Assembly: GCA_034437255.1 (NCBI GenBank)
Contig: DAOTUH010000126.1
Coordinates: forward strand, 19,198-83,197
Source of the DNA: Anaerolineae bacterium
GTDB taxonomy: Bacteria > Chloroflexota > Anaerolineae > B4-G1 > SLSP01
Direction of reading: 5' to 3'
Length of the DNA: 64,000 bases
Part shown: one piece after another, positions 3,375 to 58,215 of the stretch
Layout of the letters: each line of letters starts with the position of its first letter
Position numbering within the stretch: position 1 is the first letter of the stretch
Position numbers and translations under genes: made by a program
The notes under the pieces: model-generated
Database searches by the model: none
Told to the model about the DNA's origin: nothing
The model's input: only the letters and a program-made list of their open reading frames with translations

Positions 3375-4772
3375 CTATCGACAGCCGTATGCGCGTGCCT
3401 CGCGCTCCAACCGGCAGCCGCCGCCGCACATCTCAAGATCAGGGCAATCCCAGCAGGTCTCCGGAAGCCCCGCCGCCTGCGGATTCTCCTCACGCTCCCG
3501 GAAACTACGGAAGAGATCGCTGTTCCAGATGGCGTCCCAGGGATCGCGCAGCAGGTTGCCCGCCGTCACGTAGTACGATTGGCAGGGCAACACGTCGCCA
3601 TTAGGCTCGACGCAGATGGAGTACTCAGCGGCGTTGCAGCGTTTGGGCGCCAGGCCCAGCGCCACCGGCGAGAGCTCGCAGTAGTCGGTCACGGTGTACC
3701 AGAGAAAGCGCATGCCCAGCTCGGCAGCGCGTTCCCGCACGGCCACCAGCACCGACGCCATCTCCTCCGCCGGGATCGCATCGGGCGTCGCCAGGCCGCG
3801 TCCCGCGTAGATTATGCCATTCATCGCGAAGGTCGTCAGGCCGAGGTTGTGCACGAAATCGACGGTCTCCAGAGCGTGATTGACGTTGCGGCGCGTCAGC
3901 GTGGTGTTGGTGATGGTGTGGAAATCGCACACCAGTGCGTTCTCAATGCCCCGCACGGTCTGCTTGAAAGCGTCAGCGTTGACCATAGCGTTGTGCACGT
4001 CGGCGCGGCAGGACTCCAGCGTGATCTGCACGTGGTTGAGGCCCGCGTCGCCCAGCGCGTCCACCAGCGGTCGATGGGAGAGCGCGCGCCCGTTGGTGTT
4101 CATCCCCACGATCTGGCCCAGGTCATCGGCGTGCCGGACGATGGCGGGTAGGTCTGGGTGCAGCGTCGGTTCGCCACCGGTGAGGATGATGTGCGGCACC
4201 CCCACGTCGGCCAGCGTCTCCAGCACGCGGAACCAGTCTTCGGTGGGCAGCGGGGGCATCTCACGTCGGCCCGGCTCGTTGTAGCAATGCGCGCAGGCGT
4301 TGTTGCACCGGTAGGTCAGCGCCAGGTCGGCTTTGAAGGGCGCGCTGACGGGCGTGCTAAAGAGCGGCGCGAATTCCACCAGCGACTGGACCGCGCAGGT
4401 CGGGCAGCCGGATTCGACGGTACGGAACCGGTCGATGAGTTCGTAGACCTGGGCCAGCGCCGCGTCGAGCGCCGCGCGCGCCACACCCCGGTACCGTTGT
4501 GCGAGCGCCGCGCGCGCCCGAGCCTGCGGCACGTCATCCAACGCCAGTTTCGCCATCTCCGTCGCCGTCGCGTTGAGATGCACGGCGTCGGTCACGTCGG
4601 CGAAGAGCACGCCCGATCCGTCCTCTGCAACGCGCAGATGCAAGCGCCGCTTGCCCTCCCTCACCGGCACCGGATACGTGTACAAGCCCGGTTCCGGCGG
4701 TGCAGGCGGCGCTAACAGCGTCCACGCTGCCTGAACCTCTTCTTGAACCTGCGCCCACCAGCTGCCCATCAA
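3375..4772 (-). CDS. Radical SAM/SPASM-domain enzyme (PqqE/MftC-like) with fused N-terminal PqqD-like RRE
   Basis: LTYRCNNACAHCYN carries the CxxxCxxC AdoMet-cluster motif. GGEPTLHPDL. C-terminal Cys-rich SPASM region CWDCPDLEMCGGGC. N-terminal LHLRVAEDGSGVLFADVTDAVHLNATATEMAKLAL resembles a PqqD/RRE fold. Confidence 0.85.
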   Translation of the reverse strand: MMGSWWAQVQEEVQAAWTLLAPPAPPEPGLYTYPVPVREGKRRLHLRVAEDGSGVLFADVTDAVHLNATATEMAKLALDDVPQARARAALAQRYRGVARAALDAALAQVYELIDRFRTVESGCPTCAVQSLVEFAPLFSTPVSAPFKADLALTYRCNNACAHCYNEPGRREMPPLPTEDWFRVLETLADVGVPHIILTGGEPTLHPDLPAIVRHADDLGQIVGMNTNGRALSHRPLVDALGDAGLNHVQITLESCRADVHNAMVNADAFKQTVRGIENALVCDFHTITNTTLTRRNVNHALETVDFVHNLGLTTFAMNGIIYAGRGLATPDAIPAEEMASVLVAVRERAAELGMRFLWYTVTDYCELSPVALGLAPKRCNAAEYSICVEPNGDVLPCQSYYVTAGNLLRDPWDAIWNSDLFRSFREREENPQAAGLPETCWDCPDLEMCGGGCRLEREARAYGCR

Positions 4773-4954
4773 TTACCTCTCATATCGGCCCGCGCGTAAC
4801 CCGCGCCGCGTCTACGAAGCAGGCACCTACACAACCAGACGCTCACCGGACGCGCCGCGCCACCGCTTCCAGCCGCGTTAGCGGCGTCGGGTTGATGCGC
4901 TGGTTAGGTGCCTCCGCTCTGCATACCAACCTCTTTACCCAAAAATCCTTGTTT

Positions 4955-6229
4955 TCAATCGGCTATTGCCATACCTCGTTCAACTACCTCAATCGCTTGT
5001 CCAACACCGTCTTCAGCACGGATCCGCTCACCCAATGCATCAGCATGTACCCGAATGTTTTTGTCTGTGACTGCCGTGGCAATCGCCGCTCCCAACTTCC
5101 TCACTGTCATTCTCTTGCGCGGTATTGCCTTCGGCCCAACACCAAGCCTCATTACCTGCCGCGCCCAGAATGGCTGATCACCAAAGTGGGGCACCAACAC
5201 CGAAGGCACACCTGCTCGCAACCCCGCAGCCGTCGTTCCCGCTCCACCATGATGCACCACCGCGGCTACGCGCGGGAATAGCCAATTGTGAGGCACCGAT
5301 TCAAGTTTGAACACACCATCCGGCAAATCAACACTCTTCAGCCCGCCCCAACCTGACGCAACCAGCCCTCGTTGCCCTGACCGCTTCAGCGCTTTCAGGA
5401 CGATCTCGGTCGTTGATTCTGGATCACGGCTTGACATACTTCCAAAGCCAACATATACCGGAGGTGGGCCAGCCTCAAGGAATCTCACTAAATCGGTGGG
5501 GGGGAGCCAATCTGACGAGTGGTCAAGGAACCAGTATCCTGTGACATGAATGTGCTCATCCCAATCCGGTGGCTTAGGGACGACAGATGGACTGTAGCTG
5601 TAAAGCATGGGTACCGGTCGTCCATCCAGCTGGCCATAGGGCCACTTGAAGAGCGAAATTGGCGGCAATCCCAACTGCTTTTGCCGCCAGTGGTTGATGA
5701 AGCGCCCCGTGAGCTGTTGTGCAAATTGCTCAACCATGATGTGTGTCGAGAGATTGTAACTGCCGCCTAAGGGGAGGAAAGGAAACGCCAGGTTCGGAAA
5801 GCTGCGGGTACGATTGAAGAAAGGAAACGGTAAGGCCCAAAAACAAGGCAATCTTTGCTTCTCAGCAATATGATAAGCTCCTATTCCAAGCGTTGAAAAG
5901 ATGATGGCTTCCGCCGTCTGAGAAGCCTGCCAGACTCTACCCGCGAGTTGCTCCAGCGTCGGCTGCATCATACGGATGATTTGCCACATTCCCTGAATGA
6001 CATTGCGGCCCGATTCTAGCACATCCCACGCAGCTTCTGTCCCCAACAACTCTCGTGCGTTCATGCCAAGAGAAAAGAAATCCAATCCTTGACTTCTGAC
6101 AAACCTCTCGAAATCATCAGTCGTGACAAAAGTCACTTCATATCGCCTGGTCTTCTGCAGCCCTACGCCCAGCGCCACGAGTGGTTGCACGTCACCACGC
6201 GAGCCAAGTGCCAAAATCATACTGCGCAT
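4955..6229 (-). CDS. GT1-family glycosyltransferase (MGT/UDP-glycosyltransferase-like)
   Basis: N-terminal ILALGSRGDVQP. C-terminal HHGGAGTTAAGLRAGVPSVLVPHFGDQPFWA is a UDP-sugar binding signature. AAGGAAA SD before the ATG at 6229. Confidence 0.85.
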   Translation of the reverse strand: MRSMILALGSRGDVQPLVALGVGLQKTRRYEVTFVTTDDFERFVRSQGLDFFSLGMNARELLGTEAAWDVLESGRNVIQGMWQIIRMMQPTLEQLAGRVWQASQTAEAIIFSTLGIGAYHIAEKQRLPCFWALPFPFFNRTRSFPNLAFPFLPLGGSYNLSTHIMVEQFAQQLTGRFINHWRQKQLGLPPISLFKWPYGQLDGRPVPMLYSYSPSVVPKPPDWDEHIHVTGYWFLDHSSDWLPPTDLVRFLEAGPPPVYVGFGSMSSRDPESTTEIVLKALKRSGQRGLVASGWGGLKSVDLPDGVFKLESVPHNWLFPRVAAVVHHGGAGTTAAGLRAGVPSVLVPHFGDQPFWARQVMRLGVGPKAIPRKRMTVRKLGAAIATAVTDKNIRVHADALGERIRAEDGVGQAIEVVERGMAIAD

Positions 6230-6299
6230 CGGCGTTTCCTTGGATATTCTACGTCAACCATTCATAGATTTAACAGCAAAGGGCACCTAACCAGCACGT

Positions 6300-6450
6300 G
6301 TGTGGCTCGGTGGGACACCGGCCACAGCGCATCGTGTCAGCATTCGCACTGTGTGGCTCGGTGGGACACCGGCCACAGCGTATCGTGTTAGCATTCGCAC
6401 TGTGTGGCTCGGTGGGACACCGGCCAAAGCGTATCGTGTCAACATCCAGT
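6300..6450. repeat. Tandem direct repeat, 3 x 51 bp
   Basis: GTGTGGCTCGGTGGGACACCGGCCACAGCG(C/T)ATCGTGT(C/T)AGCATTCGCACT repeated three times with 1-2 mismatches. Contains the hairpin core CGGTGGGACACCG. Confidence 0.9.
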
Positions 6451-6452
6451 AC

Positions 6453-6794
6453 CTACCACTTGGGCGCTTCTTCGATTTGATAGCTGGCGCCGCAGTAGGG
6501 GCACTCGACAAAAATCGCGCCGGCGCGCACCGAGAGATTATCTTTATCCAGAGTTCCGCCGCAGTTTCGGCACGTCATCTCTTCCAGCTTCACGTCGCCG
6601 CTAAGATCGATCTTCTGCACGATGGTCTTCTCCTCGTGCTTGGGCCGCACGCGGGTGAGATAAATCATCACGCCGGCCCCGGCCATCAGGATCACGCCGA
6701 CGATCACGCGGATAAACTGACCTTGCGCGCCGACGACGAACATCACGCCAAAGAACGCCAACACCGCTGCGATGATATAGGTCACAATCTCCAT
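6453..6794 (-). CDS. Small membrane protein with C-terminal zinc-ribbon
   Basis: TM helix IVTYIIAAVLAFFGVMFVVGA and a second hydrophobic segment. CRNCGG...CPYCG zinc ribbon. ACGGAGGTT SD before the ATG at 6794. The track's longer start at 6836 is judged less likely. Confidence 0.65.
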   Translation of the reverse strand: MEIVTYIIAAVLAFFGVMFVVGAQGQFIRVIVGVILMAGAGVMIYLTRVRPKHEEKTIVQKIDLSGDVKLEEMTCRNCGGTLDKDNLSVRAGAIFVECPYCGASYQIEEAPKW

Positions 6795-6910
6795 GGAACC
6801 TCCGTTGTGAATGGATGGTTTGCGCAATACTCTCATTATAGTCTGATTTGGACAGCAGCATAGCGGCGGGACATGAAAGGTCTTCTCAGGAAACGGTGAC
6901 GATCAAGTTG

Positions 6911-8169: not shown

Positions 8170-8261
8170 GCGAAAAACGTTAGAACGTTTGAACGTTCAA
8201 ACGCTCTAACGTCTCCGCTTGTGTTCTCGGGTTTCGTGTACCAGCTCGTTATCGTGCGCGG

Positions 8262-12408: not shown

Positions 12409-14375
12409 ACAGGCTTCAGGCTCTTGAGCAGATTCGTCGCCATCTCCGCCATGGCCTCCAGGAACTGCGCCCGGTTGATCTGGGCCTCCTTGACCATGTC
12501 GGCGTGAATCTTCCACAGCACCTCGTCGACACCGCCGTCCGCTTTCTCCGGCACATAGCTCTGGATGTCCCCGTCAAACTCGATACGCGTCAACGCACGC
12601 GGCGTCGCCGCAGCCTCTGCATCTTTGATGACAGCTGCGAGATCCTCAGTGGTGTAAGTTTCCACCTCCAGCGTGGGGATCTCCTCGGCGGCTTTGCCCA
12701 GCGCCTCCGCCAGTTGATCGGTGAAGGTGCGCAGCGAGTCGGTCAGCCCGGCGAACTGATCCCGCAGGCCGAAGGCGACGGCGTAGTCCTCGGCTCCTGA
12801 TGGCTCTGGTGCGAGCGCCGTGGTCGGTTCGCTTTCTTCCGAGGGTGCTGAGGCGGCTTCGCTCTCTGCTTCTGCCAGCTTCTCTTTTGTGCTCTCGCTG
12901 ATAGTGATGGTGGGACGCTCCGTCTGCGGGCTCTCTTCGTCCTCCGCCACCGAGAGGCGCACCGCCGGATCGCCGATGATGACGTAGCCGCGCGCGTCGT
13001 TGTTCGCCGTCCACATACCCGCTAGCTTCACGTCGTCGCGCCGCTTGTCGAACTCGTTGACCTCCTCGATCTCGCTGGCCAGCACCACGGAGAGCTCGGC
13101 GTGGCGCTCGTTGAACCACTCCAGAGCCGCGCCCACGGGATAACCGGCCATCAGCTGATCCAGCGTGTCTTGAAAGACCTGTAACTGGCGCCCTGCCCCG
13201 CTCCACAGGAAAGAGTATCCCCAGGCGCGCTCGACGTGGCCCACGACGGCCAACGCGCCGCCCTTGGGATGGCCCAGGAGCCGTTGCGGCAACCGCGCGA
13301 TAAAGGCGTGGGGCGCGATCTCGGCCGGCTCATCAAAGGCCCTGTGCGCAAACTGATCCAGCTTGGGCGTTCCCGCACCGTAGCAGGCGAAGAAGAAAGC
13401 CATGGTGCCGGCCAGCCGCGCGTTCGAGGCGACGTCATCGGCCGAGAAGTAGAACGCCTCAGGAATCGGATCGTGCCACTCACGGGGGCCAGGCCAATCC
13501 TCACAGAGCAGCGCGCCCTGGTGCTTGAGCTGGCGCGGGTCTCCTTTGGGAAAGCCCATCCCGTGACTGGCCGAGAAGAACAGTACCGGCGTCCCGTCGC
13601 CGCCCAACAGCGTTTCGAGACGCGCCTTGGTCGCCTGCCCGATGAACTGGCTATCCCACGACGGCTGTTTGTCCGACATGGCCTCGACCAGGGGACGCAC
13701 CAACTCCTTGGCACTCATCTCCGTCGCCCGGTCGTGCTGGTTCTTCACACCAAAGAATCGCGCGCGACGCGGCAGCCGTAAATCGCCGGTCTCCGCTGCC
13801 ACCACACTCTCCGCATACTGCGCGTACTCCTCGAGCGTGTCGAAGAAAATGCGCCCGACGGCATACTGCACGTCGAGCTGATACTGGAAGCGGTAGGGAA
13901 TCGTCTCTGGCCCGCCGACGATCAGCAGATAGTAGGGCACTTTGGCGGGATTGGCCGGCCCCGGCCCCATGTTGCGCGGATCGCGGCCCAAGAAATCCAA
14001 GTAGGAGTCGGCCGGCCGGTAGCCCGCCGCGCGCATGTACTCCTGATAGAATCGTTCGTCGTCCTGCGTGGCCTGCTCCTTGCGCAGATCCAACAGCGGC
14101 TTGAGGGCCTCACGGATCGCCGGGGCCCGTTCGTCCTTTGCTCCGAAAATTACGGCCCATCCCGTCTCCGCCAGGTTCGTCTGATCGGCATTGATGCCAA
14201 AATGTGGCTGCATGCTGTCATGGCGATTCTTCAACTCCCGGTAATACTCGTCATCTTTGCTCAAGGGCTCGCCCAGCGCGACCGACGCCACGTCCTCAGG
14301 CAGCATGGGCGGCGTCCAATACTTCCCGCTGGCACCATTGATACCATTGACGTAAAGCAGCTTCTCTTCATTCAT
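12405..14375 (-). CDS. Clan CD caspase/gingipain-like cysteine peptidase with extra C-terminal domain
   Basis: His motif LFFSASHGMGFP and Cys motif FFFACYGAGTP in the order and spacing typical of C14/C25 peptidases. ATG at 14375 overlaps the NTPase stop by 8 nt. Confidence 0.75.
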   Translation of the reverse strand: MNEEKLLYVNGINGASGKYWTPPMLPEDVASVALGEPLSKDDEYYRELKNRHDSMQPHFGINADQTNLAETGWAVIFGAKDERAPAIREALKPLLDLRKEQATQDDERFYQEYMRAAGYRPADSYLDFLGRDPRNMGPGPANPAKVPYYLLIVGGPETIPYRFQYQLDVQYAVGRIFFDTLEEYAQYAESVVAAETGDLRLPRRARFFGVKNQHDRATEMSAKELVRPLVEAMSDKQPSWDSQFIGQATKARLETLLGGDGTPVLFFSASHGMGFPKGDPRQLKHQGALLCEDWPGPREWHDPIPEAFYFSADDVASNARLAGTMAFFFACYGAGTPKLDQFAHRAFDEPAEIAPHAFIARLPQRLLGHPKGGALAVVGHVERAWGYSFLWSGAGRQLQVFQDTLDQLMAGYPVGAALEWFNERHAELSVVLASEIEEVNEFDKRRDDVKLAGMWTANNDARGYVIIGDPAVRLSVAEDEESPQTERPTITISESTKEKLAEAESEAASAPSEESEPTTALAPEPSGAEDYAVAFGLRDQFAGLTDSLRTFTDQLAEALGKAAEEIPTLEVETYTTEDLAAVIKDAEAAATPRALTRIEFDGDIQSYVPEKADGGVDEVLWKIHADMVKEAQINRAQFLEAMAEMATNLLKSLKPV

Positions 14376-17300
14376 AATTACTCTCCTCTGCGAATCCCTC
14401 CGCGTCCAAGTCCAACTCACTTTCCACGTACTGCCAGGATAAATCCAACACGTCCTCGAACCGTACCAGATACCGCCGTATGGTGCCATCCCTGGAACCG
14501 GAGGCCAGATAGTGGCCATCGGGGCTGAAGGCCAACGTGTACACGATGGGATCGGTATGCCCAGGAAGCACAGCCATCAACGTTGGCGCGCGGGCTGGGA
14601 ATCGATCCAACTTCCAGAGGCGCACGTGACTATCACGCGCCGCCGTCGCCAGGTACAGCCCGTCGGGTGAGAAAGCGACACCATAGACGAAGGCCGGATG
14701 CTTCAACGGCGCTACCACGGTCGTCATGGTCTGCATGCTCCAGAGGCGCGCCGTCTGGTCCCACGCGCCGGAGGCCAAATATTGGCCATCAGGGCTGAAG
14801 TCCAGGGCAGGCACGTAGTTGCTGTGCCCCGTCAGCGTGACCGCCATCGTGACGGAGAGGCCACGCTCGGTCTCTCGCACATCGAAGAGGTGGATGTTCC
14901 CACCCAGGTAGCCCAACGCCATCCGGTCCCCCTGAGGACTTAATGTCCCACCCCAGAGGCCGCCGCGCGGAATCGTCACGCGATGATCAAGCGTCCAATC
15001 CTCCGTCCGCCAGACAAAAGCCTGCCCGCCATTGGAGACAGTGAGGAGGAAGCGACCGTCCGGCGTGAAGAAGGCCCGCTCCACATCTGCACGGTGTCCT
15101 GTCAACGTGGCGATAAGCGCACCCGTGCCCGTGTCCCATACCCTCGCATTGTTATCCGTGGCGCAGGAGACCAGATATGCGCCGCTAGGACTATACACCA
15201 GGTCCCAGAGCTCACCGCCAAGATAGCCTTCGATCTCCCGGACCACGTTGCCGTGCACCTGGGACCAGATACGCACCTCTCCGCTCTTACTGGCCGAAGC
15301 GAGGAACGTGCCATCAGGGCTGTACGTCACCTTGCGCACCAAGTCGCTGTGTCCCGTGAGCGTCGAAAGACCGGCCTGCCGGGGGAAATCCCGGTCCCAG
15401 ATGCGCACCGTGTTGTCACCGGCGCCGGCAGCCACCCAGCGGTCATCCGGGCTGAAAGCAACGTCCAGCACTACGTTGCCCGGCCCCCTCAACACGCTGA
15501 TGGCGTGCTGGTTACGCGAGCCTACGTCCCATAGATGCACCGTCCGATCCCGCGAGCCGGAGAGCAGATAGCGCCCGTCGGCACTGAAGGCCAGGGTTCT
15601 CACCTCGGCGCTGTGCCCGACCAGTGTCAGAACGGCCTCACCTGTGTCGAGATCCCAGAGTCGAATCGTTTTATCGGCGGAGGCCGAGGCCAACAGCGGT
15701 TCCGTCGGGCTGAAAGCCACCGCTTCCACGGCTTCGGTATGGGCCGTCAGTTGGCGCGGCGGGCTGACCGACAGCAGGCTAGGACCTAGAGCCCGCAACT
15801 GCCAGAGCCAAACCGTCCCGTCGTAGCACGCCGCTGCCAGGGTGAATGGCTCTCCAGTAACCATGGCTTCGATAGGTGAAGCGGTGCCTGTGAACGCAAG
15901 ATCGGCCACGCGGCGCGGCAGCTCGTCCAGGGTGAGCAGCAGCTCCGGCACCAGCGTATCGCCCCGCCGGCCCAGGGACCAGATCCGTATCAGCCCCTCT
16001 TGATCAGGTGAGTAGACATCCCGCAGCGTTTCCCCATAATCCCCACCCGTGGCAAGATAGTAGCCCTGCGGGTCGAAGGCCACGGTGTAGATCTCATCGT
16101 ACATCCCATCCGGCGTTATGACGCGCAGGCTTTCTACCCACGTCTCGGCCTCTGTGTCCCAGATTTCCACGATGCCGCCGGTCTCTCCATCGTCGCCGCC
16201 GGTCGCCAGAAACCGTCCGTCGGGACTCAACGCAAGATCGTAAACGGCACCCCGCGTCGGGAGAGGGATTAGCGTTTTCACGTTCATGCGAGTGTCGATG
16301 CGTTGCACGCCGCCGGCGGGCAGTGCTGTATAGAGAAAGCGACCGGTCTCGTCATAGGCTACGCTATGCACTTGATCCATCAGGCCCCCATACACCGAGA
16401 CGGGATAATACTCCTGCACCGCCTGGCGCAGCATGATTTGGGCCTCGTAGGTATTGATCTCGCCCATCAGCGTCTGGCTGCTCTCCTGCCACCAGCCGCG
16501 CAGACTGGGCTGAGTCCCGGCGCGGGCCAACCGGATGCTCTGCTCCCGGTCGGTCTCCAACACCGAGCGTGCCTTGGCGGCCAACTCGCGGGAATAGGCC
16601 TGCAGGCCGTTACGCATGGCTATCCACGCCAGCAGGCTGACCACAACCAGCACCATCCCGGCGAAGACGGCGCCCACGAGACGCAAACGGCGTGCGCGGC
16701 GCTGCGCTTGATCGGCCCGGCGGCTGGCTTCCAAGAACTCCTCTTCGAAGGGCTCCAGCTGGTCGGGATGGACCTCGGCCCAGGCGAGCGCCTCCTCCAG
16801 CGTCGCGTCGAGGTACAGGAGCGCCGCGTCGTCGGTCTCCTTCCACCGCTTAGCCGTGGTGCGCAGCGGCGTCTGCCGCGCCGCCTCCCACGTGCGGTTC
16901 GACTGCCGGATGGGATCGATAAGCCGGTCGTGGACCAGCTCATACCAGCGGGCACCGGCGCGCAGGTCCGAGCGGATGAGGTGCCGGGCATCCAGCACAT
17001 CGACGGCGGTGTTGGGCAGACCGGCGGTCTCCTCCGGCCCGCGCATAGCCAGGCCGCGCGTTCCCACCGACGTGATAAGATGCTCGGCGGTCCAGCGACG
17101 CACCTGCCGTTCGGGCACCTCGGTCTCGGCGATGACGTGGGCGATGGCGCTCTCGTAGAAATCGACCAGGGCACGGTCAATATCGCCGTATTGCTGAACC
17201 TCGTTCCACTGGATCAGGTTGTCTTCCTGAGCCGGCAGGTTCGCCCACAGCCGCTGACAGACCACCTGCAGCTGCACCGGCTCGACGAAGCGCCCCAGCA

Positions 17301-18048
17301 CCTCAACCTCGTCGTCGCGCCCATACCGCTGCACCTTGCTGCGTCGCAGGTCGTCGACCAGGCGCTCGGCCACGCCCTCGTCGAAGGGAACGCCGGTCTG
17401 GGCCGCCGGCTTGCGGACGGCTTGGATGGCGCCCTCGACGCCCAGCCGCTCCATACGGAAGCGAGCGCGGAGCCGGCGGGGCAGCAGCGGCGCGTAGGGC
17501 TCGACTTCGGCAACGTAATCCTCCCGCATGGCAAAGACCACGCCCAACGTGGGCAGCGCGTCCAACGCCCCCTCAACCTGGACGAAGAAACTCTCGGCGT
17601 CCTGCCAGCGGTGGCGGTGCGCCGTAAAGAGCTCCTCGAACTGATCGACGATGAGCAGCGGCGGGCGGTCGTCATCGGGCAGATACGTCTGCAAGAAATC
17701 GAGCAGGGACTGTTCGCCCAGTGGCGCCGGCGGCTCGTCCTCGCCGACCAGCGAGAGCAGCACACTGAAGACGAAGACGTTGTCCACGTCCGCGTCGGTC
17801 AGGCCGGGCGGCAGATCGTTGGCGACGCGCACCACGGGCAGCACGTTGAAAAGCTCCTCCTCCAGCGCGAGGATGACCTCGGCGTTGAGCAATGACGTCT
17901 TGCCGGCGCCAGAGGGCGCGTAGAAGAGCACCACGCGCTCGGCCAGGATCAGGGAGAGCAAGTCGCGTGCCTCGCGGTTGCGCCCGAAGAAATTCTTGCG
18001 GTCGGCGCGCTCGTAGGGGCGGGGACCGACGTAGGGATTTCCTTTCAT
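14368..18048 (-). CDS. STAND-like (nSTAND1-like N-terminus) P-loop NTPase - single TM helix - WD40 beta-propeller
   Basis: The N-terminus NPYVGPRPYERADRKNFFGRNREARDLLSLI...LFYAPSGAGKTSLLNA shows an nSTAND-like signature. Hydrophobic helix LVGAVFAGMVLVVVSLLAWIAM near residue 480. At least 10 WD40 repeats (GHSAEVRTLAFSADGRYLLSGSRDRTVHLWD and others). Start ATG 18048 overlaps the upstream stop as ATGA. Confidence 0.85.
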   Translation of the reverse strand: MKGNPYVGPRPYERADRKNFFGRNREARDLLSLILAERVVLFYAPSGAGKTSLLNAEVILALEEELFNVLPVVRVANDLPPGLTDADVDNVFVFSVLLSLVGEDEPPAPLGEQSLLDFLQTYLPDDDRPPLLIVDQFEELFTAHRHRWQDAESFFVQVEGALDALPTLGVVFAMREDYVAEVEPYAPLLPRRLRARFRMERLGVEGAIQAVRKPAAQTGVPFDEGVAERLVDDLRRSKVQRYGRDDEVEVLGRFVEPVQLQVVCQRLWANLPAQEDNLIQWNEVQQYGDIDRALVDFYESAIAHVIAETEVPERQVRRWTAEHLITSVGTRGLAMRGPEETAGLPNTAVDVLDARHLIRSDLRAGARWYELVHDRLIDPIRQSNRTWEAARQTPLRTTAKRWKETDDAALLYLDATLEEALAWAEVHPDQLEPFEEEFLEASRRADQAQRRARRLRLVGAVFAGMVLVVVSLLAWIAMRNGLQAYSRELAAKARSVLETDREQSIRLARAGTQPSLRGWWQESSQTLMGEINTYEAQIMLRQAVQEYYPVSVYGGLMDQVHSVAYDETGRFLYTALPAGGVQRIDTRMNVKTLIPLPTRGAVYDLALSPDGRFLATGGDDGETGGIVEIWDTEAETWVESLRVITPDGMYDEIYTVAFDPQGYYLATGGDYGETLRDVYSPDQEGLIRIWSLGRRGDTLVPELLLTLDELPRRVADLAFTGTASPIEAMVTGEPFTLAAACYDGTVWLWQLRALGPSLLSVSPPRQLTAHTEAVEAVAFSPTEPLLASASADKTIRLWDLDTGEAVLTLVGHSAEVRTLAFSADGRYLLSGSRDRTVHLWDVGSRNQHAISVLRGPGNVVLDVAFSPDDRWVAAGAGDNTVRIWDRDFPRQAGLSTLTGHSDLVRKVTYSPDGTFLASASKSGEVRIWSQVHGNVVREIEGYLGGELWDLVYSPSGAYLVSCATDNNARVWDTGTGALIATLTGHRADVERAFFTPDGRFLLTVSNGGQAFVWRTEDWTLDHRVTIPRGGLWGGTLSPQGDRMALGYLGGNIHLFDVRETERGLSVTMAVTLTGHSNYVPALDFSPDGQYLASGAWDQTARLWSMQTMTTVVAPLKHPAFVYGVAFSPDGLYLATAARDSHVRLWKLDRFPARAPTLMAVLPGHTDPIVYTLAFSPDGHYLASGSRDGTIRRYLVRFEDVLDLSWQYVESELDLDAEGFAEESNYE

Positions 18049-20090
18049 CGTTGCGTCGCCTCCCACCGCTCGCGCAGCTCGGCCGTGAATTGATGTGTGC
18101 TACCCCAGAAGACGTTGATCTCAGCATCCTGGAAATACTGGCGCAGGAAGTGCTGCACGGCGCCTACGTCCTCCACCTTCCCACTGGCGCTGTCCAGTTG
18201 TACCGTGACGTGCTTGAAACGGTGTCGCTGATTGAGCGTGGTCACCAAGCCCCGCAGGATCACGCGAAACTCCCAATCGTAGAGGCTGTACCCGATGAAG
18301 AGCAGCGTGCTGTTAGCCAGCGCGCCCCGGATGTACGTGGGGATGCGCTCCATCTCCGCCGAGACCTTGACGAGGAAGTCGAGGTAGTGATCGGAGGTGA
18401 GCACCAGGGATTCCGGCACCTCGTCGTGACCGAAGAGATGGTAGACCAGCGGCGTGTCCGGCGTCGGCACGTAGTTGGGATCATCGGCAAAGCGGCTGGA
18501 GAGCCAATCCAGGTCGCGGTGCCAGGGGCAGATCTCGCGTTCAGCGTCTCGACCGCGCGCGGCTAGGGCCGCCGTCATGAAGTTATCGAGGTTGGTGGTG
18601 ACGTAGAGCGGCAAATTTAGATCTGCCAGCACCTCGTGCGGATCGTTAGGATCGTCACCGGCGATGCGCTGCCATTCCACTGCATCCACCAGATCCGACA
18701 CGCTCTCCGGCGGTTGGGATGGTTGCAATTCCTCCGGCAATCGCTCGTAGAAATGGTTCACCATGGTACTCAGCAGTTCGTAGCGGGGGAAATCCTCGCC
18801 CTGGCTGCTGGCGAGATACTGCGCCACCCACGGCAAGACGATGCGGTCGGCGAAGGGATAGGCGTGAAGTCGCGTCCACCCACCGGCGATTTCTCGGGGC
18901 AGGGGCAACCAGCGCCCATGCACTCTTGGCCCGATCACGGGGATGCACTTGCCGCGCTGGATCATACGCAGGAGTCCGGTCCAGAAGATCCGGGGATTCT
19001 GCCCACCCAGCACCGCGCCGCGCGCGTCGGCTTCGGCGCTCCACAGTTGGGCTGACTTGAGCCGCATAAAGAGCACGGGCACGGCAGCATCGGGGCGACC
19101 GGCGGAAAGCAACGTGCTCCGCGCCACGTTGAGCGCCACGTCCACCTGCCCGTCTTCAAGGAGTCGACAGTAGAACGTCGCGCTGAGCTTGCGGGCCGTC
19201 TCCACCGCCACAAAATCCTGCATGGCAACGACGGCGGGCACGCCGACGGCGACCAGCTTCGGCGCCAGTCCCCGGAAGGCGTCGCCGGTAGCCCGCTGCG
19301 CGCTCTGGCAGGCATTCAGAAAGATCAGGCGGGGTCGCACGTCCTGGCGCGCCAGCGTATGCACCAGCGCCTCGTCGGTAACGAGCTCCGTGGCGCCGTC
19401 CTCGTTCTGGAGAAAGAGCACGGCCCGCTCGCGCCGCCGGCTGTAGGCGCCGTGCCCCACGTAGTGCAGGATGTGATACCCTTCGCGCAACGCTGCTTCA
19501 AGCCGTTCCAGCGTGACGGGCGGCTCCAGAAAATCGAGGGCGATCTCGTCCTCGCTCATCTCTTCAAAAGCCGCCGTGAGCAGCGCGCGCTCGGTCTCCG
19601 TCTCCACCGGCGTCAGCTCGTAGGCCGATGCCAGATCACTGGGATTGGAGATGACCGCCAGCACACGAATGGGGCGTTCTTCGACGGCGCCGCCCCAAGG
19701 TAGCGAGACGGGCAGATAGCGCGAGAAGGGTGTCTTCGCCGTCGCCGAGAGCAGCGTCGTCCCGGTGTGGAGCAGTTCCCAGGGCAGCACGTGGAGCTCC
19801 GCCGCCTGCGCGTCGATGCGCAGCCTGATCCGGCGGCGTTCCGCTTGCCCGCGCACCTCGCTCCAGGCCTGGCGCAGCGCGTCGTCTTCTAGAAGCAAAT
19901 CGAGGAGCTGCTGCCCATCGGCTACGGGATCGCCGCTAGAGGTCCAGTTGGCCGCCTCCGCCGCCAGATAACCCCGGGGGAACTCCTGCTCTCCCTCAAG
20001 CGTGATCTCGACGGGATACCCTTGCTCTCGTCGGGGAAAGATGCGGACTTCCAAATCCGCGAATCCGTTCTTGGTGCCGGTTTCACGCAT
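18045..20090 (-). CDS. CHAT-domain protease fused to SIR2-like (SIR2_2-type) domain
   Basis: CHAT His/Cys dyad HYVGHG...LIFLNACQSA. C-terminal PLYVTTNLDNF...LLFIGYSLYDWEFRVIL matches SIR2_2-like motifs. ATG at 20090 with AAGGA SD preferred over the TTG at 20186. Confidence 0.8.
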   Translation of the reverse strand: MRETGTKNGFADLEVRIFPRREQGYPVEITLEGEQEFPRGYLAAEAANWTSSGDPVADGQQLLDLLLEDDALRQAWSEVRGQAERRRIRLRIDAQAAELHVLPWELLHTGTTLLSATAKTPFSRYLPVSLPWGGAVEERPIRVLAVISNPSDLASAYELTPVETETERALLTAAFEEMSEDEIALDFLEPPVTLERLEAALREGYHILHYVGHGAYSRRRERAVLFLQNEDGATELVTDEALVHTLARQDVRPRLIFLNACQSAQRATGDAFRGLAPKLVAVGVPAVVAMQDFVAVETARKLSATFYCRLLEDGQVDVALNVARSTLLSAGRPDAAVPVLFMRLKSAQLWSAEADARGAVLGGQNPRIFWTGLLRMIQRGKCIPVIGPRVHGRWLPLPREIAGGWTRLHAYPFADRIVLPWVAQYLASSQGEDFPRYELLSTMVNHFYERLPEELQPSQPPESVSDLVDAVEWQRIAGDDPNDPHEVLADLNLPLYVTTNLDNFMTAALAARGRDAEREICPWHRDLDWLSSRFADDPNYVPTPDTPLVYHLFGHDEVPESLVLTSDHYLDFLVKVSAEMERIPTYIRGALANSTLLFIGYSLYDWEFRVILRGLVTTLNQRHRFKHVTVQLDSASGKVEDVGAVQHFLRQYFQDAEINVFWGSTHQFTAELRERWEATQR

Positions 20091-20206
20091 GATCGTATCC
20101 TTGGCTATGGAAAATGCGCCACTTGAAGTGTGTCGGCCCAGATTCACCGAAGGTTCAAAAATAGTATAGCATAGATTTGAGGGCAAAACAATAGAGGTGT
20201 GGGAAG

Positions 20207-20262
20207 TGTTGCGTGTTGCGTATTGCGTGTTGCGTGTTGCGTGTTGCGTGTTGCGTGTTGCG
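20207..20262. repeat. Heptanucleotide microsatellite (TGTTGCG)x8, one unit TATTGCG
   Basis: Directly visible. Lies in the divergent intergenic region between the CHAT-SIR2 operon start and degV. Confidence 0.95.
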
Positions 20263-20386
20263 TGATGGTCTCTGTCGGGGTTTGACTTTGTAGGCGTACG
20301 ATGAGAGGATGCCGGGGCGGATGGGTGTCTTGAGTCTGGTGTGGAGTATAATAAGAATCGACAATAAGAGATCCAGGAAGGAGATT

Positions 20387-21250
20387 ATGAGCAGTTCAAA
20401 GGTAGCACTGGTCACCGATAGCACCTGCGATATTCCCGTCGAGATGGTAGAGCGGTACGAGATTGTCGTCATTCCGGCGTACGTCATCTGGGGTGAGGAG
20501 CAATTCAAGGACCGTGTGGATCTGCATGCCAGGGAGTTCTATCAACGTTTGCAGAGCGATTCGGTCTATCCGTCGTCGTCTCATCCTACGCCCGGCGATT
20601 TCTTCAAGCTTTACCAGCGCCTGATTGACGAGGGCGCCGAGGAGATCGTGGTCGTCACTGTGAGTAGTGCCATGAGCGGCACGTACAACGCCGCCAAACA
20701 GGCCGGCGGGATGGTTGAGTCTCCCGTCCACGTGGTGGATTCGAAGGGACCGTCTATGTCTCTGGGCTGGCAGGTGCTGGCGGCGGCCCGGGCGCGCGAG
20801 GCCGGCGGCGGGGCGGAGGCCATGGTCGCCGCGGCCGAGGACGCGCGCTCGCGCATGGCCCAGCTGGTCTACATGGAGTCCATCGAGTATCTCCACAAGG
20901 GCGGGCGCATCGGCAACGCGGTGAATCTACTGGGGACGCTGCTCAAAATCAAGCCCGTGGTGTACATCGATCACGAGACCGGCATGGTGAACGTGGAGAC
21001 CGCCGCGCGCACGCGCAAGCGCGGCATCAACACGCTCTACAAGGGCTTCTTCAAGCGGCTGGACACGACGAAGCCGCTCCACGTCGCCGTGCTCCATGGC
21101 GACGTGCCGGAGGACGCGCAGGCGCTGGCGGCGCGCATCCGCGAGGAACTCAACCCTAAGGAACTGGTCATCAACATCACCGGGCCCGTGCTGGGAATCA
21201 ACACCGGCCCGGAGGCGCTGGCGCTGGCGGGATATACGGAAGCGACATAG
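20387..21250 (+). CDS. DegV family fatty-acid-binding protein
   Basis: KVALVTDSTCDIP N-terminus and overall DegV/EDD fold signature. GGAAGGAG SD before the ATG at 20387. Confidence 0.85.
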   Translation: MSSSKVALVTDSTCDIPVEMVERYEIVVIPAYVIWGEEQFKDRVDLHAREFYQRLQSDSVYPSSSHPTPGDFFKLYQRLIDEGAEEIVVVTVSSAMSGTYNAAKQAGGMVESPVHVVDSKGPSMSLGWQVLAAARAREAGGGAEAMVAAAEDARSRMAQLVYMESIEYLHKGGRIGNAVNLLGTLLKIKPVVYIDHETGMVNVETAARTRKRGINTLYKGFFKRLDTTKPLHVAVLHGDVPEDAQALAARIREELNPKELVINITGPVLGINTGPEALALAGYTEAT

Positions 21251-21700: not shown

Positions 21701-21822
21701 GGTGATTGAGGTCGAGTTGTGCAAGATAGGTTCGTATTAGCGACGAAGTCCTTGGACACTTGGCCTGGGGCCAATGCCCAAGGGTTGCCCGTGGGGCAGG
21801 CATCAGCGGAGTCGCGTTTCTC

Positions 21823-22125
21823 TTAGAACCTAACGGAGAAAGGAGGATAAGGATCATTACGAACTTGCTCTTCGTACTCTGAGCGTCCTTTATGACAAGC
21901 GAAAATCGACATCAATAAGGATTTGCGAATTCGAAGCTGCTTTGCGATCAGGCTTTCTAATTTACGAGAAAGCTCTTTTTGTCCATGGGACACCTTAGTT
22001 GCGATAGTCGGTAGACCAGGAAGAGAAAGCTCATACCAAACATGATCAGCACTACGATGCTTCGCCTCAGTGAACCCTAATTTGCGCGTAAGAGCCTTTT
22101 CCAATTTATGGACTTTGATCGGCAT
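21823..22125 (-). CDS. HicA-like toxin (YcfA family) candidate
   Basis: KLEKALTRKLGFTEAKHRSADHVWYEL and VSHGQKELSRKLESLIAKQL match the HicA consensus pattern. AT-rich context. Confidence 0.5.
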   Translation of the reverse strand: MPIKVHKLEKALTRKLGFTEAKHRSADHVWYELSLPGLPTIATKVSHGQKELSRKLESLIAKQLRIRKSLLMSIFACHKGRSEYEEQVRNDPYPPFSVRF

Positions 22126-22131
22126 TTGTTT

Positions 22132-22389
22132 CTAAGCAGGAATAGGGCGAAGATATGATTTCAGATGACGGAACAAAGATCGAGTTGGCCCATCTGTTTT
22201 GTCAACAAGAATATCATAGTACTCCAGCAAAGACTGTATATAATCCGCACGAGCGGCTTCTAGCGAATCCCCATATCCATAAACGAGAAAAATGTCATTG
22301 CTAATGATAAAAAAGCCCTCGTCTCGTTCGATGTCTAGAGCGATAGGTTTTACGATCTTCCAACCGGGAGCAATTTTGCCGGTCAGCAC
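22132..22389 (-). CDS. HicB-like antitoxin (UPF0150-like) candidate
   Basis: 85 aa. IERDEGFFIISNDIFLVYGYGDSLEAARADYIQSL resembles HicB N-domain. Lies 7 nt upstream of the HicA-like gene. Confidence 0.45.
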   Translation of the reverse strand: MLTGKIAPGWKIVKPIALDIERDEGFFIISNDIFLVYGYGDSLEAARADYIQSLLEYYDILVDKTDGPTRSLFRHLKSYLRPIPA

Positions 22390-22695
22390 AACACGGAGGT
22401 CGGGCTCTTAGCAGGTTCAGTACGAGACGCCAAGCCGACGCGAGTGAAAGTATCACTAGCATGAGTGTGCCAGTCTCCTGACGAAACATGGTACCGTTTG
22501 ACCAAGACAGTCATCTATTTTACTCCTCTTCTGTTTCCTCGGGAGTCTCTACATCAGTAAAAACTGATTCCTCGTCTTCTTCGGTACTATCCCATTCCTC
22601 GCGAAGTAAACATCCTATCGCCAACCAACGGGCAAGCAGTAAAATTCCTGAAGTCCAAGACCAACGCAGCGTACGTGCGTCACCTCTAGTATGAG

Positions 22696-24522: not shown

Positions 24523-24614
24523 AATGATCTCCCTGGATAGTCAGATAGTCGTTAGTCGGGTAGTCGCTTAGTCATCTGGTCATTTTCAGGCGATAGAACG
24601 GACATAAGAAAGTC

Positions 24615-24759: not shown

Positions 24760-24850
24760 TTACAGAAAGTCAACGGATGCAAAAGGATGCAACGGATGGA
24801 ACGGATTAAAGATCAGAAATCCGTTCCATCCGCTAAATCCGTCGATCTGA

Positions 24851-26427: not shown

Positions 26428-26582
26428 GCTTATCTCCTTGTGATAAAGTTTAGAATCTGTTATGCGTTAGTGGATATAGGCTGCGTGATACGCAAAACGT
26501 GAAACGTGAGGATATCTGTAGAAGTCACGCTTCACGTCTTACCGTCCGTCAAAAGAGGCATGATGGTAAAAGTGACACCTTG

Positions 26583-26680
26583 ATCTCGTCTGAGCCGCCC
26601 CCGGGAGCGCGGAGCCTGCCTGGAGAGGCCCGGGGCCGGGAGCATCATTGCGCGGCTTTTACCCCAATGCCAAAAGAGGC
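26583..26680 (+). repeat. GC-rich ~95-nt element F, copy 1
   Basis: About 85% identical to 31796-31895. Inverted repeat CCCCGGG...CCCGGGG. Ends in CTTTTACCCCAATG. Confidence 0.5.
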
Positions 26681-30002: not shown

Positions 30003-30183
30003 GGCAGATGTCAGACAAATACATCCCCATTCGGATGCCCTTTATTAAGATGTTTCTTGTTCTGACACGTTTTCCCGGTAAAATCAGTCAAAGTGAAGTG
30101 TAACTATCGAATCCACCCTTGATCAGTGACGTGAAGGAGGTGAGAACTCGGCACCACTCGAATCAAGATAATGATCAAGTTTT

Positions 30184-30332
30184 GTATCTGTTTAGTCTTC
30201 TGGGGTACGACGCACTTTCGCTGACGTTCACGAACCTGGGATTCCTAAACTATGCTCGTAAAATATTGTAGCCCGGTTTGTTTCGGTTCGTAAGTGCGTT
30301 GCACCTGGACGCTCACAAACCTAGACGGTTAC
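30184..30332 (+). repeat. Conserved structured element E, copy A (5' leader of BMP gene)
   Basis: Nested potential helices CTGTTTAG/CTAGACGG and GGTACGACGCAC/GTGCGTTGCACC. Ends 40 nt before the GTG start at 30374. Confidence 0.55.
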
Positions 30333-31471: not shown

Positions 31472-31795
31472 TCACTGGGGTGTGTTTCGTTTGAGTCGCG
31501 TGCGTATTGCGTGTTGCGTATTCTACGCGAGAAGCTATCTTAGCGATGCCCGGCTCATTCAGAATACACGTAGTTCGTTCGGGTGGAGGGGGGGGACGCA
31601 CGTCTGCTCCCTCCGCCCCTCCAGCCTAGGACAGAAAACGTGAGGGGCAATGCCGGCTCACCAGGGAAGAGTAAAAATCGGACACGGACGAACACAGAAA
31701 AACACGGCAAAAACAAAAAACGAAGCGAAGCCGTAGCGAAGCCGTGGCGAAGCCGTGATCGCAGTCCGTGTTCTGCCGTGTCCTAAAATGGCATG

Positions 31796-31895
31796 ACGGT
31801 AGAGTACGCTTGAGGCGCCCCCAGGAGCGCGGAGCCTGCCTGGAGAGGCACGGGGGCTGGGAGCATCATTGTGCGTCTTTTACCCAAATGTCTAA
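31796..31895 (+). repeat. GC-rich ~95-nt element F, copy 2
   Basis: Matches 26583-26680. Located inside the 505-nt spacer between the SBP and ATPase genes. Confidence 0.5.
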
Positions 31896-31976
31896 AATAG
31901 AACCCTCGTTGTAGTAGTGTTAGCTGCTGCCAGACATTGCCGTTGACGTTTTAGGTTCTATGAAGAGGAGAAATTT

Positions 31977-41651: not shown

Positions 41652-41857
41652 TCGATGTTGAGCTCTGTCCGAGACAAAAACCAACCAACGGATTGAACGG
41701 ATGAAACGGATTCTTACTTGATCTGTTGCATCCAAGGATGACCTTTGACCTTTGGCATTCGACATTTGACATAGACTCCTTTTCAAGGAGGTGCGATGGA
41801 CCCAATCTGGCATTTAGCTTAACGATTCTTTCAGCCCTTACCAAGAGGAGATAAACA

Positions 41858-42972: not shown

Positions 42973-43121
42973 GTATCTGTTTAGTCTTCTGAGGTGCGAC
43001 GCACTTTCGCCGAAGTTCACGAGCCGAGGACTCCTAAACCATGCTCGGAGAACTTTGTAGCGCGGTTTATTTCGATCCGTAAGTGCGTTGCACCTGGACG
43101 CTCATAAACCTAAACGGTTGC
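42973..43121 (+). repeat. Conserved structured element E, copy B (5' leader of ABC ATPase gene)
   Basis: About 95% identical to copy C and about 85% to copy A. Ends 20 nt before the ATG at 43142. Confidence 0.55.
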
Positions 43122-46671: not shown

Positions 46672-46900
46672 GGAGGCCGGGGGCGGGCACGGTGGGGACA
46701 CCGGCCCGAACGAGAAGGTAGGCGTGATGGGGAGGCCGGGAACGGGCACGGTGAGGACACCGGTCCGAACTAGAGAAGAGCGGGCGCGGTGGGGAGACTG
46801 GGGGCGGGCACGGTAGGGACACCGGCCCGAGCGAGAGAAGGGCGGGCGCGGTGGGGAGATCGGCCCGAACTTTAGGGACACCGGCTCGAGATACCCGTGG
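46672..46900. repeat. Tandem direct repeat, ~60 bp x 3.5
   Basis: Units GGAGGCCGGGGGCGGGCACGGTGGGGACACCGGCCCGAACGAGAAG.... Shares the core CGGTGGGGACACCGGCC with the 6300-6450 array. Confidence 0.9.
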
Positions 46901-47228: not shown

Positions 47229-47377
47229 GTATCTGTTTAGTCTTCTAAGGTGCGTCGCACTTTCGCCGACGTTCACGAGCCGGGGACTCCTAAACCATGC
47301 TCGGAGAACTTTGTAGCGCGGTTTGTTTCGATCCGTAAGTGCGTTGCACCTGGACGCTCACAAACCTAAACGGTTGC
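47229..47377 (+). repeat. Conserved structured element E, copy C
   Basis: Nearly identical to copy B. Lies 3' of the convergent CAP-domain gene and is not in a leader. Confidence 0.55.
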
Positions 47378-58133: not shown

Positions 58134-58215
58134 TCAAAATTTACCATCTTATGAATTTCCTTTACGTTCTTGGCGGCTATGCATGAGGTTGATGGTTATT
58201 TCAGTGCAGTCAACA
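58134..58215 (+). repeat. Conserved ~72-nt element R, copy 2, with mini-ORF MNFLYVLGGYA (58151-58186) and 19-bp flanking direct repeat
   Basis: Matches 2441-2513. GTTATTTCAGTGCAGTCAA occurs at 58119-58137 and 58195-58213. Confidence 0.5.

Follow-up and report, generated by a model that had tools for sequence, protein, structure and literature searches.

A length-variable TRTTGCG heptamer tract upstream of a CHAT-SIR2 operon in Anaerolineae is probably a slippage-prone member of a dispersed repeat family

Short tandem repeats located near promoters have been examined in several bacterial systems that are relevant to the locus described herein. The STRR sequences constitute a dispersed heptamer family of heterocystous cyanobacteria. 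Repeats positioned upstream of a -35 element are able to modulate promoters in other bacteria, and the (TAAA)n repeat of nadA in Neisseria meningitidis lies upstream of the -35 element of that gene, where the spacing of regulator sites (NadR, IHF) matters.

Heptanucleotide repeats form the most abundant class of long SSRs in many bacteria, and polymerase slippage, explained by the footprint of the polymerase, has been proposed as their cause, according to what PMC4679880 and PMC4692102 relate of Mrazek et al. 2007. The GGGAATC heptamers of Xanthomonas vary in length between close relatives and include some inverted pairs, and GGGAATC/GGGGAYT units are found in Xanthomonas and Nostoc (PMC4692102). 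TAACTGA heptamers occur in Beggiatoaceae, Cyanobacteria, and Bacteroidetes (PMC4679880). A heptamer with a demonstrated relation to gene expression is the (ATCTTTC)n repeat of hmw1A and hmw2A in Haemophilus influenzae, whose length is inversely related to expression; these repeats reach 9-28 copies and belong to the transcribed 5' UTR, where they fold with a G-rich arm into a long hairpin cleaved by RNase III (PMC2424069, PMC12721329).

Here we analyse a heptamer tract located between a putative defence operon and the divergent degV gene in a 64-kb stretch of DNA from an Anaerolineae bacterium, which homologues assign to an uncultured lineage of this class in the phylum Chloroflexota. We refer to this whole stretch as the window, and positions are counted from its first letter. 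The repeats and genes of principal interest are the following.

20207-20262, plus strand: heptanucleotide tandem array (TGTTGCG)x8, third unit TATTGCG (direct reading, TRF, shuffles)
31502-31523, plus strand: second tract, three units GCGTATT, GCGTGTT, GCGTATT and then C, which together read GCGTATTGCGTGTTGCGTATTC (TRF, dimer pattern)
26484-26509, plus strand: imperfect heptamer array CGTGAAA x3.7 (TRF), with no length change relative to assembly L139
18045-20090, minus strand: CHAT-SIR2 gene, 681 aa from ATG 20090, first in the minus-strand operon (Pfam CHAT 8.8e-30, SIR2_2 1.2e-20)
14368-18066, minus strand: nSTAND1-WD40 gene, next in the operon
20387-21250, plus strand: degV, 287 aa, the divergent neighbour (Pfam DegV 3.9e-78; 100%-identity cluster P0001, from which the DegV of the window differs by G36D)

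The tract at 20207-20262 comprises two TGTTGCG units, one TATTGCG unit that carries a G>A change, and five more TGTTGCG units, and on the strand of the CHAT-SIR2 operon it reads (CGCAACA)n. Its longest perfect run amounts to 6.0 copies (20223-20264). TRF reports 20206-20264 with period 7, 8.4 copies, 96% matches, and a score of 111, which is the top score among short-period arrays in the window, and the tract is also the sole perfect tandem repeat there with a period of 4-15 and at least 3 copies. The dimer pattern TRTTGCGTRTTGCG, with R allowed at position 2, has 8 matches in the window, whereas 0.06 are expected from 100 dinucleotide shuffles of the same DNA, none of which reached 8. The eighth of these matches is the second tract, which is situated 30 nt past a Bmp/PnrA-like gene and 455 nt ahead of an ABC ATPase gene, and arrays of the TRTTGCG type are thus present at two loci in the window. 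An earlier note on this DNA had described eight tandem heptamers in the region shared by CHAT-SIR2 and degV and a shorter related tract near 31495-31525. The count is correct, with TATTGCG as the one deviating unit, the Pfam-annotated open reading frames place the tract in the divergent intergenic region as claimed, and the shorter tract is real.

Two start codons had been put forward for the CHAT-SIR2 gene, and the tract indeed begins 20 nt from the first (TTG 20186) and 116 nt from the second (ATG 20090). The ATG has an RBS (AAGGA) 7 nt upstream and is the start called in four assemblies. We rejected the TTG, which falls inside a promoter box, is passed over by gene callers in favour of ATG 20090, and would add a 32-codon extension that is broken in the sister species by a 38-nt indel, which is not a multiple of 3. 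A short ORF that runs through the tract on the minus strand (20155-20508) was also dismissed, as it overlaps the start and promoter of degV and is not conserved.

The nSTAND1-WD40 gene is followed in the operon by a gene for a C25-like protein. In a related species whose DegV is 84% identical (L006, 3344-4000), the minus-strand promoter box and the C25-like gene are kept without CHAT-SIR2 and nSTAND1-WD40, and therefore the module formed by these two genes (window 14368-20090) was gained or lost between the promoter and the C25-like gene. On the other side of degV, the interval from the DsrE gene to an aldehyde ferredoxin oxidoreductase gene contains about 1 kb of AT-rich DNA (21750-22690; 40-48% GC vs 60% overall) without a long ORF. 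The L137 assembly calls two small genes (100 and 85 aa) in the matching stretch, and neither has a Pfam hit.

To compare strains, the same locus was obtained from independent assemblies by exact-protein look-ups with members of the DegV cluster and with DsrE, and the sequences recovered are 99.2-99.9% identical to the window. Exact look-ups with the window's own DegV and CHAT-SIR2 proteins, and likewise with P0125, returned no match. A metagenome scan with a 23-mer from the left flank also gave no match, and a DegV-based metagenome scan returned distant paralogues only, so that neither scan added alleles. Among the same-species assemblies there are at least four alleles, of which the complete ones have 5 or 8 units.

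Two TGTTGCG, TATTGCG, five TGTTGCG: 8 units; window and L152
Two TGTTGCG, TATTGCG, two TGTTGCG: 5 units; L010/L133/L139 and L132
Five TGTTGCG, perfect: 5 units; L137
Two TGTTGCG, TGATGCG, TATTGCG, one TGTTGCG: 5 units; L001/L002
Contig truncated, visible end TATTGCG and one TGTTGCG: at least 4 units; L012

The visible part of the L012 allele differs from both the 8-unit allele and the [2, TATTGCG, 2] allele. Length differences are confined to the tract. Over 19.5 kb, the window and L139 are separated by 69 mismatches (SNPs) and a single gap of 21 bp, or three units, that lies inside the tract, and over 8.9 kb the comparison with L001 yields 49 mismatches and again one gap of 21 bp inside the tract. 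The imperfect arrays at 24536, 24772, and 26484 are unchanged in length in the 19.5-kb comparison. Copy number, which the earlier note had proposed to compare across strains, therefore does vary, and it accounts for the only indel in that interval. In the sister species, which is 81-86% identical and has the same gene order, only TGTTGCG TGGTGCG is present at the position of the tract, and a third species has neither the CHAT-SIR2/STAND genes nor the tract. Judged from the strain alleles, from the restriction of gaps to the tract, and from the two-unit site in the sister species, the tract is a genuine microsatellite and a local hotspot for indels, presumably expanded from a seed of two units. 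The tract is also a useful strain marker.

Repeats are generally unreliable in short-read assemblies, and several contigs break at this one, which raises the question of whether the array reflects chance similarity or an artefact of assembly. We consider this explanation almost certainly wrong. The contig names are in the MEGAHIT style and imply assembly k-mers (k127) that exceed the 56 bp of the tract, and the 0.06 matches expected from shuffles stand against the 8 observed. Furthermore, two independent assemblies carry the 8-unit allele, and each of two independent samples yielded the [2, TATTGCG, 2] allele. Because the tract is found in several independent assemblies, it is not an assembly artefact. 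The seven contigs that end inside the tract, namely six short-k Logan contigs (L012, L134-136, L138, L151) and the NCBI MAG contig L150, are suggestive in another way, as such ends are expected when alleles coexist in one sample.

The speed at which the tract changes is a separate matter. Strains that have diverged by 0.1-0.4% have the 8-unit allele in common, and the same holds for the [2, TATTGCG, 2] allele; therefore the turnover is not obviously as fast as that of classical contingency loci. The complete alleles of 5 and 8 units differ by 21 bp, which corresponds to two helical turns. The restriction to these two lengths among a few alleles could be due to chance, or it could be a hint of a phasing constraint.

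Whether changes of this sort could affect transcription depends on where the promoters are located. A scan of 19900-20500 with the sigma-70 consensus gave no match. Promoters were then predicted from conservation, using relaxed criteria and a three-species alignment of the intergenic region (A1). This alignment has two conserved islands amid divergent intergenic sequence, and the tract lies in the unconserved middle. The conserved boxes are as follows.

20186-20191, minus strand: -35-like hexamer TTGTTT of the predicted CHAT-SIR2 operon promoter, kept in three species
20163-20171, minus strand: extended -10 TGcTATACT of the same predicted promoter, with a 17-nt spacer, an invariant block in A1
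20345-20352, plus strand: degV -10 box (AG)TATAAT, with TATAAT at 20347-20352, kept in 3/3 species

The arrangement TTGTTT-17-TGcTATACT probably represents a promoter of the sigma-70 type with an extended -10 element. Its predicted transcription start is near 20156, about 65 nt ahead of ATG 20090. The TATAAT of degV is located 35 nt ahead of the degV start. One end of the tract is 15 bp upstream of the operon -35 element and the other is 85 bp from the degV -10 box. The claim that the tract alters promoter spacing consequently does not hold, as the operon -35 and -10 elements (20191-20163) separate the tract from the CHAT-SIR2 gene, and the degV -10 box is 85 bp away from the opposite end of the tract. 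The tract is in no ORF and in no -35/-10 spacer; it is intergenic and upstream of a conserved -35 element. Because it falls outside both conserved core promoters, copy number changes only the distance between them, which measures 179 bp between the -10 boxes with 8 units and 158 bp with 5 units, and therefore any effect would act at a distance. Moreover, because the array is repetitive, the promoter-proximal sequence is the same in the two length classes, and 5- and 8-unit alleles do not differ between the operon promoter and about -86.

These findings bear directly on the suggestion that slippage turns the costly CHAT-SIR2/STAND operon on and off or adjusts the level of its transcription, through phase variation or 'volume control'. 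Such an effect might arise if a regulator site or the degV promoter were moved relative to the operon promoter, as with nadA, or if the repeat were included in a long 5' UTR, as it is in hmw. There is a real length polymorphism that is confined to the tract, the tract occupies the promoter region of a putative defence operon, and the contigs that end inside it look as they should if alleles coexist in one sample. The hmw system also provides the precedent of a heptamer tract in which greater length goes with lower expression (PMC2424069, PMC12721329). In addition, the degV -10 box AGTATAAT is nearly symmetric and reads TATACT/TATTAT on the minus strand, and it could in principle drive a minus-strand transcript that runs through the tract.

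However, the position of the tract outside any ORF or -35/-10 spacer and the identity of the alleles out to about -86 both argue against a switch. In the sister species, the stretch that separates the tract from the degV promoter lacks conservation, and for this reason we see no sign of a fixed operator. Nor is there a hairpin like that of hmw. Neither of the two strands of the tract gives a better fold than shuffled sequences do, and the same is true of a hypothetical minus-strand leader of 256 nt (z +1.4, +0.4, and +1.65). With Rfam there was no hit in 19950-20450 at E values up to 1, and none at gathering score in the whole window, and we accordingly rejected a structured RNA or riboswitch as a candidate in this intergenic region. 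The persistence of the same alleles in strains 0.1-0.4% diverged, and the fact that the repeat family adjoins housekeeping genes too, weigh in the same direction. Overall, slippage as a regulator of this operon strikes us as quite improbable. A binary ON/OFF switch for defence genes is unlikely, whereas a modulatory effect of the tract on expression is possible.

Several other repeats occur in the window. The genes beside its other heptamer tracts are Bmp/PnrA-like and ABC-transporter genes rather than defence genes, and the CGTGAAA unit of the imperfect array adjoins TRTTGCG arrays in other Chloroflexota genomes. Nonamer arrays of the type AACGGATKN are present in two unrelated intergenic regions (24772-24845 and 41687-41712), the first of which is followed by inverted copies (ATCCGTT...) to give an array and an inverted array with period 9. 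At 8175-8212, convergent genes are separated by an octamer array based on the palindrome AACGTT (AACGTTNN x4-5), and the sister species carries a similar array immediately ahead of degV (L003, ~3930-3975). Longer tandem repeats of 51 bp (x3, 6294-6445) and 62 bp (x3.2, 46672-46863) have the common core GGTGGG(G)ACACCGGCC.

Dispersed repeats are present as well. A non-coding element of about 150 nt occurs in three direct copies that are 87-96% identical (30183-30330, 42973-43121, and 47229-47377), two of which adjoin Bmp/PnrA-like ABC-transporter genes. It matches no Rfam family at gathering score and is a candidate leader or regulatory RNA, or perhaps a small mobile element. There are also two GC-rich non-coding repeat pairs, one at 26591-26675 and 31811-31897 (88% identical), located 100-300 nt from heptamer arrays, and the other at 2437-2514 and 58136-58213 (92% identical).

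The heptamer unit itself is far from restricted to this locus. A scan for (TRTTGCG)x3, with one genome per GTDB species, found arrays of at least three units in at least 119 genome stretches, where about 2 would be expected by chance according to our own arithmetic. Among the matches listed (at least 119), 67 stretches are from Chloroflexota by record title, including Anaerolineae, Thermoflexales, Caldilineaceae, Ardenticatenia, Chloroflexia, Sphaerobacter, and Limnocylindria. The other phyla among the matches listed are mainly Bacteroidota/Rhodothermales, Verrucomicrobiota, Planctomycetota, and Gemmatimonadota, with a few Proteobacteria. There are several loci per genome, and at least 10 stretches are located on one 11.3-Mb Chloroflexia chromosome. 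The repeat is thus not special to a defence operon, since the same unit is present at these many places and its relatives in the window flank ABC-transporter genes. Literature searches with motif strings and for heptanucleotide repeats in Chloroflexi returned nothing relevant on the TRTTGCG/CGCAAYA unit or its host range.

The periodicity of these genomes was assessed in 822 kb sampled from the matches listed, with block-wise dinucleotide shuffles as the control. There are 310 period-7 arrays vs 27 in shuffled sequence, although about 127 of the 310 are present by selection for one heptamer. Period-14 arrays are also in excess (60 vs 6), whereas counts for periods 10 and 11 are at expectation in the same sample (44 vs 45 for period 10). 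The window alone has 6 period-7 arrays vs 1.0 shuffled. A total of 117 different heptamer units, CGTGAAA among them, was recorded among the matches listed. By crude ORF calls, about 115 of the 127 TRTTGCG arrays (~90%) among the matches listed lie outside long ORFs, usually near the end of a gene. As a separate observation, an Acidimicrobiia MAG (L109, ~4089-6823) has heptamer arrays of the TATTGCG, CGTTTTC, and ACGGATT types between consecutive putative membrane-protein genes in an apparent operon; from their sequence, these genes may be nuoH/I/J/K-like.

The arrays are often paired. Among the matches listed, 57 of 127 (45%) are accompanied within 150 nt by a (CGCAAYA)n array in inverted orientation, and the order of the arms is almost always TRTTGCG, a gap of 6-56 nt, and then CGCAAYA, with the partner downstream in 51 cases vs upstream in 5. 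Such inverted pairs could form long hairpins. Examples include L017, L018, L043, L119, L104, L042, and L068 on chromosome OY969916.1, as well as L014, L021, L023, L062, L065, and others. Copies within the same genome sometimes have shared flanks (...gatattgcc... / ...gacaaatgcc...) and are dispersed in the manner of REPINs or MITEs. In some cases, (CGTGAAA)n is followed at once by (TGTTGCG)n, as in L060 and L066 from the same Chloroflexia chromosome and in L065, at different loci and in different genomes. Composite (CGTGAAA)n(TGTTGCG)n arrays, and also shared flanks, occur at separate loci of the 11.3-Mb Chloroflexia chromosome and in a Caldilinea MAG. The recurrence of these composites suggests that arrays are sometimes copied as blocks, and the fact that some copies in one genome have flanks or composite arrays in common hints that copying may operate besides slippage in place.

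Given these features, it is reasonable to ask whether the arrays are recognised by a conserved factor of Chloroflexota that binds DNA or RNA, or else are mobile hairpins resembling REPINs. The tract in the window would then be a solo array that reads (CGCAACA)8 on the CHAT-SIR2 sense strand, and its copy number would set the binding valency. The unit recurs across many genomes and at numerous loci within them, which is consistent with this proposal, as are the fixed order of the paired arms, the composite arrays, and the shared flanks at separate loci. In addition, among the matches listed, solo arrays located within 150 nt of a gene start are antisense to TRTTGCG in 35 cases vs 10 (p=2.5e-4) by crude, start-dependent gene calls. 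This strand bias, by which the sense strand of the downstream gene reads CGCAAYA, is suggestive. However, it falls to 12 vs 7 among the matches listed when start-independent gene calls are used, and because it is weak under such calls we hold it to be unproven. Moreover, the 117 heptamer units recorded in the same genomes among the matches listed fit a general mutational bias with period 7 better than a single, specific binding protein. The tract in the window has no inverted partner array nearby and lies upstream of the predicted promoter, and our analysis gave no candidate binding protein. We therefore view recognition sites or mobile hairpins as a rather unlikely account of the arrays. In its strongest form, the proposal would make the family an undescribed cis-element system centred on Chloroflexota, in which solo arrays or inverted arrays of fixed order form heptamer-periodic hairpins beside genes, they are read by a dedicated nucleic-acid-binding factor or dispersed in a REPIN-like manner, and strain-level differences in copy number tune their neighbours, including the CHAT-SIR2/STAND operon. 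That larger possibility is a long shot at present.

The explanation we favour, with a probability of roughly 0.6, is that the tract belongs to a dispersed TRTTGCG/CGCAAYA family, is prone to slippage, serves as a variable spacer between divergent promoters, and influences expression in a graded manner at most. Its seed, two units long (TGTTGCG TGGTGCG), would have been present already at this position, as it is in the sister species, and would have expanded to 4-8 units in the species of the window, with units gained and lost by strand slippage during replication. The array would thereby have become a spacer of variable length between two back-to-back promoters, upstream of both -35 elements. 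Changes in its length would leave both core promoters intact, and the units proximal to the operon promoter would remain constant whatever the copy number. A graded effect, if there is any, might arise from the distance between the promoters or from supercoiling that couples them. Slippage is the probable mechanism, the boxes probably are promoters, and the effect on expression is probably small or absent. Neutral slippage alone does not predict the order of the arms (51 vs 5 among the matches listed) or a possible bias relative to downstream genes.

It follows from this preferred account that the repeat should not be read as evidence of a phase-variable CHAT-SIR2/STAND operon. The locus itself is fairly ordinary, and it is the focus on Chloroflexota and the inverted arrays of fixed order that make the family the more notable part. 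A second large and phylogenetically independent heptamer family with an asymmetric order of arms also constitutes a data set on which mutational and functional explanations can be compared.

Comparison with the systems introduced above places the tract among them. With hmw, it has in common a heptamer tandem repeat that precedes a gene for which variable expression could bring an advantage and a copy number that differs between isolates. Unlike hmw, the tract has only 4-8 copies, a predicted promoter that is downstream of the repeat, and no hairpin partner, and because the tract and leader fold no better than shuffles, the hmw mechanism has no counterpart here. The resemblance to nadA lies in a repeat upstream of the core promoter, where the gain or loss of units shifts the DNA further upstream in distance or phase and leaves the -35/-10 spacing unchanged, whereas at the tract no conserved operator is seen in the three-species alignment A1. 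The inverted array pairs in other genomes resemble REP/REPIN sequences and MITE-like palindromes in that long hairpins are possible and flanks are sometimes shared, but their arms are tandem heptamers of variable number, and the window tract is a solo direct array.

The closest likeness is to the dispersed heptamer families. These also consist of 7-nt units repeated in tandem from a few up to tens of times; a given unit recurs between genes at many unconnected places, and one genome harbours several such unit families. Their length and sequence vary among close relatives, and some of the arrays form inverted pairs. The differences concern the TRTTGCG/CGCAAYA unit, which is not G-rich and therefore has no quadruplex potential, the host range centred on Chloroflexota, and the inverted partner in fixed order that accompanies nearly half of the TRTTGCG arrays among the matches listed. 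Thus, the tract appears to fit a known kind of repeat, and what appears to be new is its unit and a host range that is centred on Chloroflexota.
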